Source of the DNA: Nanobdellota archaeon | GTDB taxonomy: Archaea > Nanobdellota > Nanobdellia > Pacearchaeales > GW2011-AR1 | DNA length: 64,000 nt | Assembly (NCBI GenBank): GCA_018815925.1 | Contig: JAHIWS010000017.1 | Coordinates: 15,285-79,284 of the forward strand | Direction of reading: 5' to 3' | In this document: positions 49,776 to 63,263 of the stretch, in pieces | How the letters are laid out: every line of letters starts with the position of its first letter | Numbering within the stretch: the first letter of the stretch is position 1 | Position numbers and translations under genes: made by a program | The notes under the pieces: generated by a model | Told to the model about the DNA's origin: nothing | Database searches by the model: none | What the model saw: the letters and a program-made list of their open reading frames with translations, nothing else

Positions 49776-50165
49776 TCAATCCCACCTATCTTTTTTTTCT
49801 TCAGGGGGTTTTACTGCTTTGTGAATTTTTGCAAAAGAAGGAGTTACAATTATCATGTTTTCTCCAAACCCGGCAATACTTCCTTCAAGAGCATCTGCTG
49901 TTTTTTTTATTTTTGATACAGCTCTTTTCAACTCTATTGAATCTTTTTGTCTAAGAATTTTAATATCAACTATCGCAATTGTATAACCTTCTCTTAAAGA
50001 ATTAAGAATATCAGTAACATCTTCGTATTGTTTTAGTGTAAATAGTTTTACAAGAACCTTGTTTTCTTTTTCAGGCTGATCTAAATCAATTTCTAAATAT
50101 TCATTGCCAACTTCTTCATCATCTGTTGAGCCTGAAAAAACCTTTTTTAGTTTATCAAAAACCAT
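49776..50165 (-). CDS. sepF: Cell division protein SepF-like (DUF552)
   Basis: DILNSLREGYTIAIVDIKIL...LKRAVSKIKKTADALEGSIAGFGENMIIVTP matches SepF core; FtsZ encoded 3.5 kb away. Confidence 0.55.
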   Translation of the reverse strand: MVFDKLKKVFSGSTDDEEVGNEYLEIDLDQPEKENKVLVKLFTLKQYEDVTDILNSLREGYTIAIVDIKILRQKDSIELKRAVSKIKKTADALEGSIAGFGENMIIVTPSFAKIHKAVKPPEEKKDRWD

Positions 50166-53224: not shown

Positions 53225-53716
53225 TTAATAATCATAATAAGAATAATCGTTTATTATTTCTATTCCCATTGCCTTTGCAGTTTTAATATTAGATTCTTCC
53301 ATAAACCATTTAGATAATCTTTCAAATTGAGCTTTTTTACAAATGTCCCAATTGGCTCTAGGAGTATCTTCTTTTGGGAGTTGTTTTTCTTCAAATCTTA
53401 ATAAAAGTTTTGTGGTTGGAGGAGCTCCAGGATAAGTTAAATCAACTTGAATAAATTGGTAACCTACTGAAAAACCCATATTGGTATTAATAGGCATAAA
53501 ACAAATATTATCTCTTTTAATAATTATCTCTATAATTTTCCCTAGTTGTCTTTTAGTTAATTTTTTATCTTTATAATTATCTACAAATCCTTCTCCATAA
53601 ACTTTAGAACATACTCTTTGAACACCTCTCATAGATTTATCTAGTTTAGTAAAGAAATTTATATCTGCTGAGGTTAATTTTTTTGATAATTTTGTCATAT
53701 TATTCAATAAACTCAA
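53225..53716 (-). CDS. Hypothetical protein
   Basis: 163-aa ORF between ftsZ and secE; 17-nt overlap with ftsZ; no recognisable family. Confidence 0.4.
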   Translation of the reverse strand: MSLLNNMTKLSKKLTSADINFFTKLDKSMRGVQRVCSKVYGEGFVDNYKDKKLTKRQLGKIIEIIIKRDNICFMPINTNMGFSVGYQFIQVDLTYPGAPPTTKLLLRFEEKQLPKEDTPRANWDICKKAQFERLSKWFMEESNIKTAKAMGIEIINDYSYYDY

Positions 53717-54821
53717 TTCCTAATTCTTCCTCGATTTCACGGTGTTTCATACTTTCTACAGATTCACCATGTCCTAGAATTTGAGCTGATTTAACTCCTG
53801 TAACAATTAATAAAACTCTAATTGATTTTTCCATATCAGCAGAAATCTGGGCTCCCCATATTAATCTCGCGTCAGGACTTAGTTTTTCTCCTATTGTTTC
53901 TATTATTATTTTACACTCTTCTAGGCTCATATTAGGACCTCCAACAATATTTACTAAAGAACCAGTTGCATTTGAAATATCAACATCAAGTAAAGGATTT
54001 TGGATTGCTTTGTTAACAGCATCCATAGCTCTTTGCTCTGTATCAGATTCACCCATTCCTATTAAAGAAACACCTCCATTTGCCATGACAGCCCTTATAT
54101 CTGCAAAATCAAGATTAACTAAACCAGAAGTTGTTACTAATTCAGTGACTCCTTTAACCGCATTAGTGAGTATTTCATCAGCAATTTTAAATGCTGTATG
54201 TAATGGAAGTTCAGGAGCTAATTCTAAAAGTTTATCATTGGGAATAACTATAAGGGTATCAACACTAGCTTCAAGTCTTTCAAGACCATCCATTGCATTC
54301 TCAATTCTTTTTTTACCTTCTATTGTAAAAGGAAGAGTCACAACCCCTATAGTCAAAGAACCTTGTTTTTTTGCCAAATCTGCAATAACAGGAGCAGCTC
54401 CTGTTCCTGTTCCTCCTCCTAATCCACATGTAATAAAAATCATATCGCTTCCTAAAAGTTTTTTCTTTATTTCAGATCCAGATTCTTTTGCTGCTTCTTG
54501 CCCTATTTTTGGATTGCTTCCAGCTCCTAAACCTTGTGTTAATTCTTTTCCAATCAAAATTTTATGGTCAGCATTAACATAAAGAAGATCTTGTGCATCT
54601 GTATTTATTGCTATAAGTTCCCCTCCTTTGATTCCAATTTCTCTCATTCTGCTTAAAGAATTGCCTCCACCACCCCCAACTCCAATAACTTTAATTTTAG
54701 CTGATTGTTTTTTAAGGAGTTCTTCTAATTCATGATCAATTTCTTTTAGTTCAGAAGAAAATTCAGACATAGGTTTAGAATATGAATTCCCTCCATTATT
54801 TGAACCATAAATATCATCCAT
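53700..54821 (-). CDS. ftsZ: Cell division GTPase FtsZ
   Basis: GGGGNSLSRM, GLGAGSNPKIGQEAA and GLGGGTGTGAAPVIA tubulin/FtsZ signatures; start set at the second Met (MDDIYG...) because the track start (54854) lies inside the conserved promoter motif at 54848-54864. Confidence 0.85.
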   Translation of the reverse strand: MDDIYGSNNGGNSYSKPMSEFSSELKEIDHELEELLKKQSAKIKVIGVGGGGGNSLSRMREIGIKGGELIAINTDAQDLLYVNADHKILIGKELTQGLGAGSNPKIGQEAAKESGSEIKKKLLGSDMIFITCGLGGGTGTGAAPVIADLAKKQGSLTIGVVTLPFTIEGKKRIENAMDGLERLEASVDTLIVIPNDKLLELAPELPLHTAFKIADEILTNAVKGVTELVTTSGLVNLDFADIRAVMANGGVSLIGMGESDTEQRAMDAVNKAIQNPLLDVDISNATGSLVNIVGGPNMSLEECKIIIETIGEKLSPDARLIWGAQISADMEKSIRVLLIVTGVKSAQILGHGESVESMKHREIEEELGIEFIE

Positions 54822-54847
54822 GTCTTGAAGTAAGCAGGAATTATTTA

Positions 54848-54864
54848 TAAGCATTATTGTGGTA
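54848..54864 (-). promoter_or_regulatory. Conserved BRE/TATA promoter motif (copy 1, upstream of ftsZ)
   Basis: Plus-strand TAAGCATTATTGTGGTA (coding strand TACCACAATAATGCTTA followed by AAAA), about 27 nt upstream of the probable ftsZ start; identical to copy at 62927. Confidence 0.5.
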
Positions 54865-54913
54865 CAAAAAACACCAAAGTGTTTTAGAGAATTATTGTGC
54901 TCTTTTAGGAGGG

Positions 54914-55237
54914 TTATTTTAAAATTTTAAAATTTTCTTCATCTATTTGTTTTTTATATTGATTAAAAAAATTCTTAACAGATGGAAGAAGAGCTTTGTT
55001 ATACAACACTTCTATTCTTTTATACCCTAATTTATGTGGTCCAGTAAAAGGATGTTCATAATTACCTATAAATTCTAATTTTCCTTTATTATCTATAACA
55101 ATTTTAACTAAACTTTCTTCACTATGTCCATCAAAGATAGTCCTCTCTAAAAATACTTTTTTATTTTGTTTATCTATTAAATAAAAAACTCCAAAATCAA
55201 GATCTTTAAATTCAATTCCTTCTGTTTCAGTTGGCAT
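54914..55237 (-). CDS. Hypothetical protein
   Basis: 107-aa ORF; no recognisable family. Confidence 0.4.
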   Translation of the reverse strand: MPTETEGIEFKDLDFGVFYLIDKQNKKVFLERTIFDGHSEESLVKIVIDNKGKLEFIGNYEHPFTGPHKLGYKRIEVLYNKALLPSVKNFFNQYKKQIDEENFKILK

Positions 55238-55267
55238 TTTTAAAAAATTAAATCTAGTATTTATAAT

Positions 55268-55921
55268 TTATTGTTCTTTATCAATATTTTTTTTGTTTTC
55301 AATTTCTTTAACTTCTAGATCCAAGCCCAAAATATCTTTGAATTTATCTTTGAAAAGCCCTGCAAATTGTTTCATGCCTTTATCAACATTTAATACAATT
55401 TTCTTCTCTTCTATCTTAAACTCAAAATCTTTTCTAAATAAGAATTCAATAATAGATTTTACTTTTTCATTTAGATCAGTTACAATTCTTTTTACATTTA
55501 TATCATAAATAACATCTTTTCCTGCTATTGGATTATTAAAATCAGTTAAAATTCTACCTCCAGAAGCACTTAATATTTTTCCAATTCTTCCATCAAAATT
55601 AAATATTGCTCCAGGAATTGGGTTAATTTGTTGTTCTTTAAAAACTTTCATTGGAATTCTTTTTATTAGTTCTGGATTTCTATTACCAAATGCTTTTTCA
55701 GGAGAAAGTTCAACTTTATATTCTCCAATATTTTTTTCAATCAAAAAATCTTCAACACTTTTCAGAAACATTTCTTGTCCAAGAACAATTATAAGTGGTT
55801 TTGCTTGTATCTGAGGATTTATTTTTTGAAGATCTTCTTTGATATTTGAATCAAAAATGTTTCCTTCTTTAGTTTTTGCTGTAAATTCTATTTCAATGAA
55901 ATCATTTTTTTTAAGAGGCAT
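55268..55921 (-). CDS. FKBP-type peptidyl-prolyl cis-trans isomerase (long archaeal type)
   Basis: FKBP fold motifs IEIEFTAKTKEGNIFDSN...LIIVLGQEMFLKSVEDFL with inserted IF/flap region. Confidence 0.55.
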   Translation of the reverse strand: MPLKKNDFIEIEFTAKTKEGNIFDSNIKEDLQKINPQIQAKPLIIVLGQEMFLKSVEDFLIEKNIGEYKVELSPEKAFGNRNPELIKRIPMKVFKEQQINPIPGAIFNFDGRIGKILSASGGRILTDFNNPIAGKDVIYDINVKRIVTDLNEKVKSIIEFLFRKDFEFKIEEKKIVLNVDKGMKQFAGLFKDKFKDILGLDLEVKEIENKKNIDKEQ

Positions 55922-61075: not shown

Positions 61076-61828
61076 ATGGAGAGAGATTTATTCACGTTGT
61101 TTAAGGAATATGGGCTTAGTGAAAAGGAAATACAAATATACCTTTTTTTAGTTAGAAAAAATGAACTAACAGCATATAAGATATCCAAAGAAACTAAAAT
61201 CCACCGTTCTACTTGTTATGATGTTTTAGAAAGACTAATTTCTAAGGGATTTATCTCTCAAATAGAAGAAGGAAATAAAAAAGTTTTTTCTGCAAATAAT
61301 ATAACAAATGTTATAGCAAACCTAAAGGATAAAGAAACGATTTTAACTTCAATAATTCCCAAAATACAAAGATTAGAACAAAAACAAGACAGATATGTAA
61401 AGGTATTGGAAAGCCCCCTTAGTCAAAAAGAATTCTATAATAATTTATTATCTTTAATCAAACAAGGAAAATTAACTTTTGTTTATCTTTTAAGTCCAGG
61501 ACCAAGTGAAGGATCCAAATTAAGTACCAATATTTTTATTGAAAGGATTATAAATGAAGCAATTTCAAAGAGATTACTAAATAAAATAGACTACAAAGCA
61601 ATTTGGGATTCTAGATTTAAAGATTCTGATTTTTTTAAAACTGCTAAGAGATTGGGAGAAAATAAATTTCTTAATTTGCCAACACATGCTACAACAATGA
61701 TTTTTAATAACCATCTAGCTTTTTTATATACTCAAGAGGAATCTAATCTAATTGAAATTAAGAATCAATTTGTTTCAGGAGAAATGAAAGCATATTTTGA
61801 ACACCTTTGGAAACAAGCTAAACTCTAA
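61076..61828 (+). CDS. TrmB-family transcriptional regulator
   Basis: N-terminal LFKEYGLSEKEIQIYLFLVRKNELTAYKISKETKIHRSTCYDVLERLISKGFI TrmB-type HTH. Confidence 0.55.
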   Translation: MERDLFTLFKEYGLSEKEIQIYLFLVRKNELTAYKISKETKIHRSTCYDVLERLISKGFISQIEEGNKKVFSANNITNVIANLKDKETILTSIIPKIQRLEQKQDRYVKVLESPLSQKEFYNNLLSLIKQGKLTFVYLLSPGPSEGSKLSTNIFIERIINEAISKRLLNKIDYKAIWDSRFKDSDFFKTAKRLGENKFLNLPTHATTMIFNNHLAFLYTQEESNLIEIKNQFVSGEMKAYFEHLWKQAKL

Positions 61829-61877: not shown

Positions 61878-62228
61878 CTATAAATCAATAACACCCTCTT
61901 TTGTTAATGCTGCAAACCTTACTCCAATAGGCAAATTAATCAAAGCAGAGATTAAGGCCATGTGTTCCTTACCATCTCCACTTGCTATTGATAAAGCAAC
62001 TTCCATACCTTCAAATTTACCTCTGAGTTTTTGAGACAAATCATCCCTAAGTTCTTTTAGTTTTTTATTAAGATCAACTTTAATAAACTCAAATTTTTTC
62101 TCGTGTTTAAAATCTTTAGCAAAATCACTTCCAAGAAGAATTATTTTTTCCCATTCTCCGTGTTTCATTAATCCAGAAACCTGTGCCCATGTTCCTTTTC
62201 CAGAAGATAATAATGCTATGAGTTCCAT
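61878..62228 (-). CDS. Hypothetical protein
   Basis: 116-aa ORF; first of a run of small minus-strand genes. Confidence 0.35.
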   Translation of the reverse strand: MELIALLSSGKGTWAQVSGLMKHGEWEKIILLGSDFAKDFKHEKKFEFIKVDLNKKLKELRDDLSQKLRGKFEGMEVALSIASGDGKEHMALISALINLPIGVRFAALTKEGVIDL

Positions 62229-62229
62229 T

Positions 62230-62586
62230 TTACAACATAATCCTCATTCCGTTTTTAAATATTCTTTTATTTCTTGCGGAAATTATATTAGTAGTTATTG
62301 GGAATTGGTTTTTTATTGAAGGTATTTTTTTGGAGTATTTTCTTTCAATTTCCTGTTTAGATATCTTTTCAATACTATAACTAGATTTTACAATAGGAGT
62401 TCCATCAGTTAAAATATGTTTTATTGAAGATTCATCAGGAGCTTCTCCCCATACTCTTTCTAACCCTCTATAAATACTATCAAAAATTTTATTATTTTGG
62501 TTATTATCTGTAAAAACTTTTATTACTAATCCCCCTGTCTTGCATGATCCATTATCAAATTTGATTTCATAATATTTAGGATTCAT
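62230..62586 (-). CDS. Hypothetical protein
   Basis: 118-aa ORF; 2-nt gap to downstream gene. Confidence 0.35.
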   Translation of the reverse strand: MNPKYYEIKFDNGSCKTGGLVIKVFTDNNQNNKIFDSIYRGLERVWGEAPDESSIKHILTDGTPIVKSSYSIEKISKQEIERKYSKKIPSIKNQFPITTNIISARNKRIFKNGMRIML

Positions 62587-62592
62587 TTTAAA

Positions 62593-62901
62593 TTATTCTG
62601 TTCTATTTTGAATTAAATCAAGATTTTGTTTAATTGTATTAGAAGTTATTAAATGATCTGGCTTACAATAATCTAACATAGCTTTAACATAAAAAGAATC
62701 CTTAGCTAATTTTTCAGCTTTTTTTTCATTAATTTCTGTTTTAGAATAATGGCTTGAAACTCTAAAATTTCCTTCTTTATCTAGAAAAAAACCTTTTTTT
62801 CCTTCTCCTGCAATAACTTCTAATTCTCCATCTTCAAATTTAACAACAATTCCGTCTCCATCGGGATTTTTTCTTGGCCCCACTCTATAATATTTAATCA
62901 T
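62593..62901 (-). CDS. Small conserved hypothetical protein, paralog A
   Basis: 102 aa; paralogous to 62972..63220 (shared MxxKYxxxxPRxKPxxxGDxVVxxDGxLxxxxGxG N-domain); own copy of the conserved promoter motif. Confidence 0.45.
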   Translation of the reverse strand: MIKYYRVGPRKNPDGDGIVVKFEDGELEVIAGEGKKGFFLDKEGNFRVSSHYSKTEINEKKAEKLAKDSFYVKAMLDYCKPDHLITSNTIKQNLDLIQNRTE

Positions 62902-62926
62902 AGAAAAAATATACTCAAGAACTTTT

Positions 62927-62943
62927 TAAGCATTATTGTGGTA
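62927..62943 (-). promoter_or_regulatory. Conserved BRE/TATA promoter motif (copy 2, upstream of paralog A)
   Basis: TAAGCATTATTGTGGTA 26 nt upstream of start codon; coding-strand TTAAAAA TATA-like element centred near -25. Confidence 0.5.
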
Positions 62944-62971
62944 TTAGTTAGTTATTGCAATTAAATTACTT

Positions 62972-63220
62972 TCACCATAAAGGCCTACAGTTCCATTTAT
63001 CGCGAGCTTGTTTGTGTCTGAGTGCTTCTTTTTCTGTGATTCTCTCTAAATAATATTTTTTTGAACAACTAACTTGATCATATCTATCTGCTTTTAATTC
63101 AGGATCCTCAGGATAACCATCTCCTGTAAAAGTTTTTAATTGTCCGTCTTTTAATATGACAACATCTCCATTAATTTCTGGTTTATTTCTTGGTTTAAGA
63201 GAAAAATATTTTACTTCCAT
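62972..63220 (-). CDS. Small conserved hypothetical protein, paralog B
   Basis: 82 aa; paralog of 62593..62901; own copy of the conserved promoter motif. Confidence 0.45.
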   Translation of the reverse strand: MEVKYFSLKPRNKPEINGDVVILKDGQLKTFTGDGYPEDPELKADRYDQVSCSKKYYLERITEKEALRHKQARDKWNCRPLW

Positions 63221-63245
63221 TTTAAGTAAATTAATAGAGAGTTTT

Positions 63246-63262
63246 TAAGCATTATTGTAGTT
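63246..63262 (-). promoter_or_regulatory. Conserved BRE/TATA promoter motif (copy 3, upstream of paralog B)
   Basis: TAAGCATTATTGTAGTT (1-2 mismatches) 26 nt upstream of start codon. Confidence 0.45.
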
Positions 63263-63263
63263 T

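Follow-up and report, generated by a model that had tools for sequence, protein, structure and literature searches.

The window, the stretch of 64,000 nucleotides analyzed here, has a G+C content of about 28% (26-31%) and is a Pacearchaeota-like DPANN contig; the nearest relatives of the FtsZ, PCNA, and p116 proteins are labeled Nanoarchaeota or Pacearchaeota. The window forms part of a 120.7-kb metagenome contig (ERZ27247128 k141_222294). The genes of interest lie on the minus strand. ftsZ (53700..54821, with the start corrected as argued below) encodes 373 aa beginning MDDIYGS and matches the Pfam families Tubulin and FtsZ_C. Between ftsZ and secE, a 157-aa gene without a family match (53225-53698, p157) starts about 2 nt after the ftsZ stop; in relatives, this spot holds other small genes (86, 107, or 43+107+102 aa). 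Just upstream of ftsZ is a 107-aa gene (p107, 54914-55237), which is kept beside ftsZ in locus L101 (70% identity), and sepF lies at 49776-50165. The window also contains an operon of three small genes: par1 (62593..62901, 102 aa), a member of a small, fast-evolving family; p118 (62230..62586, 118 aa), which starts 6 nt after the par1 end and ends 1 nt before the p116 start; and p116 (61878..62228, 116 aa), the last gene. The 82-aa paralog of par1, par2 (62972..63220), aligns with the par family. p107 and p118 show a faint similarity (28% over 92 aa, E of 0.03 in a tiny database). Just past the window end (L118 9387-9991, about 63765-64369), a PIN-domain gene and its 81-aa upstream partner form a toxin-antitoxin-like pair adjoining the 163-aa gene that precedes par2. 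About 3 kb before the window start (L119 6892-7236), a Y1 (IS200-like) transposase gene sits in a glycosyltransferase/radical-SAM cell-surface cluster. In the relatives L101 (11481-11999) and L102 (13624-14256), a LAGLIDADG endonuclease gene separates the L11 gene from the L37ae gene; the window has no such gene at the corresponding place.

We listed all upstream regions of the window and found the plain archaeal layout, namely an A-rich segment followed by a TTTAWAAA-like box and the ATG. The TATA-like 8-mer ends exactly 21 nt 5' of the ATG in 14 genes and at 19 to 25 nt in 25 of the 88 genes of the window, and 21 nt is the sharp genome-wide peak of this distance. Because TATA-like 8-mers end 21 nt before start codons, leaderless transcription is probably the default in the window. 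The earlier note had proposed a BRE-like segment and a TATA box centered near -25 for the promoters described below, and leaderless transcripts from them; the window-wide register supports both, the leaderless start itself being implied by the TATA-ATG spacing. In a scan for sigma-70 promoters and intrinsic terminators, which is irrelevant to an archaeon, matches were no commoner than in shuffles.

A 17-mer, TAAGCATTATTGTGGTA, that had been placed by the earlier note at three sites indeed occurs without mismatch at 54848-54864 and 62927-62943 and with two mismatches at 63246-63262, and the window contains no further match at up to 3 mismatches. The chance expectation is 0.26, and three matches were reached in 0 of 100 dinucleotide shuffles. 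The 26 to 27 nt given for the distance to a start codon are correct if counted from the end of the 17-mer nearer to that codon. On the coding (minus) strand, each copy reads A-N2-ACAATAAT-G-CTTAWAAA and ends 21 to 22 nt before an ATG; the three copies are jointly described by (A/T)(A/T)AC(C/T)ACAATAATGCTTA(A/T)AAA, with ATGs at 54821, 62901, and 63220. The individual coding-strand sequences are gtACCACAATAATGCTTATAAAt followed by 22 nt and the ATG for ftsZ, atACCACAATAATGCTTAAAAAg followed by 21 nt and the ATG for par1, and aaACTACAATAATGCTTAAAAAc followed by 21 nt and the ATG for par2, and the 21 to 22 nt before the ATG contain no G-rich stretch or Shine-Dalgarno sequence in any of the three. 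The CTTAWAAA box keeps the genome-wide register of 21 to 22 nt at 3/3 window sites and at most sites elsewhere.

The ftsZ promoter (23-mer GTACCACAATAATGCTTATAAAT, 54843..54865, minus strand) scores 28.2 bits with the matrix described below; it comprises an upstream element, ACCACAATAATG (54863-54852), and a TATA box, CTTATAAA (54851-54844), that ends 22 nt before the ATG at 54821. The motif of the par1-p118-p116 operon, ATACCACAATAATGCTTAAAAAG (62922..62944, minus strand), scores 30.4 bits, with its TATA box (62930-62923) ending 21 nt before the ATG at 62901, and that of par2, AAACTACAATAATGCTTAAAAAC (63241..63263, minus strand), scores 27.8 bits, with its TATA box (63249-63242) ending 21 nt before the ATG at 63220. 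Two weaker sequences lie near ftsZ. A degenerate second copy, AGAGCACAATAATTCTCTAAAAC (54881..54903, minus strand; 4 mismatches to the 19-mer, 13.5 bits), precedes the main ftsZ motif by 38 nt; its role is uncertain, since orthologous ftsZ promoters have no counterpart of it. A variant before p107, gAACAATAAATTATAAATA (55258..55277, minus strand), has its ACAATAA start 37 nt before the ATG, and the p107 ortholog in L101 has AACAACAAAGTATAAATA at 38 nt, with AACAAYAAA common to both; the variant scores below the matrix threshold, so the membership of p107 in the class is uncertain. The motif is not palindromic. We considered a second half-site about 20 bp upstream as a defining feature and rejected it, as it is present in par1, par2, and the PCNA promoter of L117 and not generally.

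We then analyzed the small proteins. par1 and par2, which the earlier note called paralogs, are weakly so (29% identity over 80 aa, pairwise E of 3e-9), and their promoters, identical at 19/21 positions, are far closer than their coding sequences. Pfam and NCBIfam gave nothing reliable for par1, par2, p118, p116, p107, or p157; a MetJ-like match for par2 (E of 0.017) and a Hef-like match for p116 (E of 0.11) were far below the cutoff and were disregarded. A search of 1.84 billion proteins returned 17 representatives of the par family at E ≤ 0.001, counting the cluster to which the query belongs. An AlphaFold2 model of par1 (pLDDT of 84) predicts a beta-sheet plus helices, for which the PDB holds no significant match, the best being a PC4-like fold (E of 0.5). 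No homolog of p118 was found among the sampled loci. p116 has 3664 homologs, of which the best 120 are 81 to 89% identical to it and all unnamed or "hypothetical." In a Foldseek search of the PDB with its AlphaFold2 model (pLDDT of 88), the best matches were CARF domains, and these weakly (E of about 1e-3, TM of 0.55 to 0.7); other Rossmann folds match too. We therefore treat the CARF likeness of the predicted fold as a lead only. Stand-alone CARF domains are sensors of cyclic oligoadenylates.

The occurrence of the element in other genomes was examined by motif scans. Among 185,579 species genomes, CYACAATAATGCTTAWAAA had 58 matches. All nine of those in genomes labeled DPANN (Woese-, Pace-, or Nanoarchaeia MAGs) lie 21 to 22 nt (one, 26 nt) before a long open reading frame, one of them before FtsZ (L059) and one before PCNA (L053); in other organisms, 3/49 matches lie at such a distance before a long open reading frame. 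A metagenome scan returned 40 contigs, with an ATG at 19 to 26 nt in 13 of the 25 distinct low-G+C contexts and in 0 of the 6 high-G+C ones, and yielded a third, different FtsZ with the motif (L074). Eight scattered matches were found in viral contigs, which contain no FtsZ relative. The taxonomic range of the element is that of Pace-/Woesearchaeota-type Nanoarchaeia. In Woesearchaeota-type contigs, the exact motif precedes a GH130-like enzyme, a radical SAM protein, a HAD-like hydrolase, tandem small membrane proteins, and a protein that we take, from its sequence, to be carbamoyltransferase-like; since these downstream genes are mixed, the set does not look purely like a cell cycle set. In a Pacearchaeota MAG, three motif promoters follow one another in tandem (L037 6357-7440), and the small genes behind them encode predicted membrane or secreted proteins of 123, 139, and 169 aa. 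An exact motif also precedes PCNA in a MAG labeled Methanosarcinales (L006 3453-3475); here the spacing is 32 nt, the ATG is preceded by a GGGGG stretch, and the PCNA is only 39% identical to DPANN PCNAs.

As the scan matches had been selected by the motif, we sampled orthologs without regard to it. Four FtsZ homologs (83 to 89% identity), picked only for lying on long contigs, all have a variant that ends 21 to 22 nt before the ATG (TCACAATAATGCTTTTAAA, CCACAATAATTCTTATAAA, TCACAATAATGCTTATAAA, and CCGCAATAATCCTTAAAAA), which brings the ftsZ genes with the element at the equivalent place to seven genomes (the window, L101, L102, L104, L105, L059/L067, and L074). In the PCNA sample, 4/4 promoters have AACAACAAT(G/A)CTTAAAAA or AATAACAATGCTTAAAAA at a distance of 21 nt from the ATG (28 nt in one of them), for six genomes in all. 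Each FtsZ locus contained a second site, before a 116-aa gene about 75 to 82% identical to the p116 of the window. For p116, the motif was found in 5/5 genomes (L101, L102, L104, L105, and L095; five to six overall); it adjoins the gene directly in L102, L104, and L105, and in L101 and L095 a small leading gene comes between. The flanks of orthologous motif sites are not conserved. Because orthologs carry the element in an equal position within unrelated flanks, it is under selection, and ftsZ, PCNA, and the p116 operon have it in common, which upholds the shared promoter element of the earlier note and extends it to PCNA and p116. Near PCNA, a 61-aa histone-fold gene is kept at about 7 to 9 kb (L114 2689-2874, L116 2379-2564, and L117 1218-1403), and on the opposite side a wHTH (HVO_A0114-like) gene is kept at about 8 kb.

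The leading genes in L101 and L095/L100 match the par-family profile (E of 1.5e-10 and 8e-5), and a p116 homolog follows both. Since these are par-family genes before p116, the order motif, par, p116 recurs in three genomes. The small paralogs share their promoter element with ftsZ, as noted at the outset; the deeply conserved partner of ftsZ, and the conserved target of the promoter class, is p116, the paralogs being recurrent passengers between promoter and p116.

To describe the specificity of the element, we built a matrix from 16 sites that had not been selected by motif, with the consensus A-N2-ACAAYAAT-N-CTTAWAWA. At ≥17 bits, this matrix, which like its threshold was derived from the sites that it scores, finds, in 229 kb of nine genomes, the 16 sites and one other, which precedes an 88-aa gene of L105, and 0 in Markov controls. 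A further 20 kb of the source contig contains no additional site. In 13 cases, the ACAAYAA segment starts at exactly 38 nt upstream of the ATG; every other offset has 0 to 3 cases. Compared with 59 generic leaderless promoters, the class has in common an A at -3/-4 and an A/R at -6/-7, which correspond to the A-rich BRE that normally adjoins the TATA box. About six positions are specific to the class: A-12, A-9, C-8, Y-5, T-2, and C0, the first TATA base. The AAYAAT-N-C part occupies the ordinary A-rich BRE position of the genome, and the constrained stretch upstream of the TATA box spans 12 to 13 bp, versus 3 to 5 bp for an archaeal BRE (PMC7289017). The full motif is absent from the promoters of SepF, primase, histone, aIF5A, and the ribosomal (L1) operon. 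sepF is outside the gene set and has a conserved promoter of its own: in five genomes (the window, L101, L102, L104, and L105), GAAAT-N-TTTATAAA lies 21 nt upstream of the ATG, and all five keep GAAATNTTTATAAA. In L102 and L105, this promoter is preceded by CACA, a near-miss of the ftsZ motif. Such intermediates are found in the SepF promoters of these two genomes (CACAGAAATNTTTATAAA), in the PriS promoters of L114 and L116 (ACAAYAAACAAT(A/T)TAAA), and before p107; together with the BRE/TATA skeleton common to ordinary promoters, they suggest that the class may be one extreme, the most tightly constrained, of a continuous range of promoters.

We propose, as the more probable reading of these data, that the element represents a separate class of core promoter in archaea, a composite BRE/TATA with the consensus A-N2-A-C-A-A-Y-A-A-T-N-C-T-T-A-W-A-W-A, in which a dedicated factor beside TFB/TBP, or a TFB variant, recognizes the extra positions, resulting in coregulation. 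The 3' part, CTTAWAAA, would be the TATA box; with its end 21 to 22 nt before the start codon, transcription by RNA polymerase would begin on the ATG or beside it, yielding a leaderless mRNA. A-12, A-9, C-8, Y-5, T-2, and C0 would be contacted by the dedicated protein, either a sequence-specific factor just upstream of and touching TFB/TBP or a variant of TFB itself, and the genes with a promoter of this class would be switched together. The conserved set would consist of ftsZ (division), PCNA (replication clamp), and the p116 operon, which often includes par-family small genes (two in the window), and other members would vary by lineage; the set may be linked to the cell cycle, as the earlier note had suggested. 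The motif indeed precedes several unrelated genes, far above chance, and is kept before orthologs while the flanks diverge. We found no candidate DNA-binding protein for reading the motif; the neighboring TrmB-family gene (61076-61828) is convergent with the operon and not linked to it elsewhere. BLAST searches for TFB and TBP in the sampled loci, with Pyrococcus sequences as queries, gave no match.

Other explanations have to be weighed against this proposal. ftsZ is annotated from the ATG at 54854, and if this were its real start, the conserved sequence would be a coding or translational signal and no promoter. The frame is open from that codon, which gene callers chose in two sources (P0002, 384 aa). 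It is, however, the ATG within the invariant AATAATGC of the motif, the ATG-containing 20-mer also precedes unrelated genes in other frames, and the extended ftsZ would begin inside a TATA/BRE that fits the genome-wide register. The 11-residue extension is missing from the homologs (361 to 373 aa), and P0001, identical to the 373-aa FtsZ, is annotated with 373 aa by NCBI. FtsZ orthologs, whose N termini the earlier note had suggested comparing, begin with MDDIY, MDDLY, or MEDVY at an equal distance from the motif, and in L101 an in-frame TAG directly precedes the conserved start ATG of ftsZ. The true start is, judged from these observations, the downstream Met at 54821, as had been claimed, and we regard the start at 54854 as effectively excluded, with a probability close to nil. 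The identity of the copies could also stem from a recent duplication, gene conversion, or mobile promoter cassette in this genome, without function. The paralogs par1 and par2 lie in tandem, and the 20-nt stretches preceding their motifs resemble each other (TTGCAATAACTAAC and TTACAATAACTAGG), which fits a tandem duplication that carried the promoter along. Against this, the par promoters have stayed at 19/21 while the proteins fell to 29% identity, the ftsZ copy has nothing in common with the par copies beyond the 21-mer, and the element precedes orthologous ftsZ, PCNA, and p116 genes in many genomes within unrelated flanks. Duplication or gene conversion is effectively excluded for the ftsZ copy, and as an account of the element as a whole it is very improbable.

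A more serious alternative is that the element is an ordinary variant of the core promoter, a flavor of BRE and TATA box read by a single TFB/TBP pair and tuned to a constitutive strength, with no regulator and no regulon, the families concerned simply needing a similar level of expression. This would fit the location of AAYAAT in the normal BRE position, the A at -3/-4 common with the 59 generic promoters, the intermediate promoters, and the functionally mixed genes downstream of the motif in Woesearchaeota-type contigs. The generic SepF promoter is likewise kept across five genomes, so conservation alone is no proof of a dedicated regulator, and the lack of a palindrome or of a consistent second half-site, unusual for dimeric archaeal regulators, also counts against one. 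However, six positions outside the usual 3- to 5-bp BRE are nearly invariant across 16 sites from 9 genomes with randomized flanks, and in roughly 229 kb the class score is reached by only about 1 promoter outside the target genes. The histone, aIF5A, and ribosomal operon promoters, presumably highly expressed, and those of SepF and primase do without the full motif, which argues against a plain "strongest promoter" reading. We consider an ordinary variant possible and rather unlikely.

Our literature searches turned up neither this motif nor an account of promoter classes in DPANN archaea. The sites of the archaeal activators Ptr2, TFB-RF1, and EarA are found immediately upstream of the BRE/TATA, from where the recruitment of TFB/TBP can be assisted. 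These are sites of identified proteins of Methanococcales and Thermococcales, and their sequences are unlike the present motif, which resembles them in its placement by the BRE/TATA. With the canonical leaderless BRE/TATA promoter of archaea, the element shares the A/T-rich 8-mer at a fixed distance from the start codon, the A-rich segment upstream, and the absence of a Shine-Dalgarno sequence; it differs in that the loosely A-rich BRE of 3 to 5 bp (PMC7289017) is replaced by 12 to 13 nearly invariant bp, with the first TATA base fixed as C and few gene families downstream.

Two known systems involve cis elements of division genes, and the element is neither the CdrS/CdrL motif nor the aCcr1-box. 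In Halobacteria, CdrS/CdrL likewise comprises an element before ftsZ common to other genes and ties small uncharacterized genes to ftsZ regulation. CdrS is an RHH protein cotranscribed with ftsZ2, it has been reported in all major archaeal groups except DPANN, and the motif of this system is symmetric and located 41 to 110 nt upstream of the transcription start site (PMC7439475, PMC8406309), whereas the present motif is asymmetric and fused to the TATA box. We found no small RHH gene attached to ftsZ in the manner of cdrS-ftsZ2: the upstream 107-aa gene has no reliable match to RHH or any other Pfam or NCBIfam family, and ftsZ has its own promoter. The aCcr1-box of Sulfolobales, a short motif at equivalent positions in division gene promoters across the whole order, was the basis for inferring a cell cycle regulon (PMC9976878). 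The present element is similar in being a conserved short motif in division gene promoters and differs from the aCcr1-box in sequence and in its side of the TATA box: it is nonpalindromic, lies upstream of the TATA box, and is found in DPANN archaea that use FtsZ.

To our knowledge, nothing is known about the control of replication and division in DPANN archaea. If the distinct promoter class that we favor exists, one could tentatively go further and imagine the element as the operator of a putative master regulator of proliferation in Nanoarchaeia (Pace-/Woesearchaeota), which, through a single promoter of fixed register, would couple replication (PCNA) and division (FtsZ) to the universally conserved, CARF-like p116 and the fast-evolving par proteins as a DPANN-specific counterpart of the CdrS and aCcr1 circuits and might be tied to nucleotide signaling or host contact. 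The motif contains an ATG, hence the recurring misannotation of the ftsZ start codon, which the element corrects. As a 20-bp handle, it may serve as a pulldown probe, as a search pattern for complete genomes, and as a key to metatranscriptomes, and it singles out p116 and the par proteins as candidate factors of division or replication. Its presence before ftsZ, PCNA, and p116 in many genomes points to a previously undescribed set of genes that would be coregulated in these archaea.
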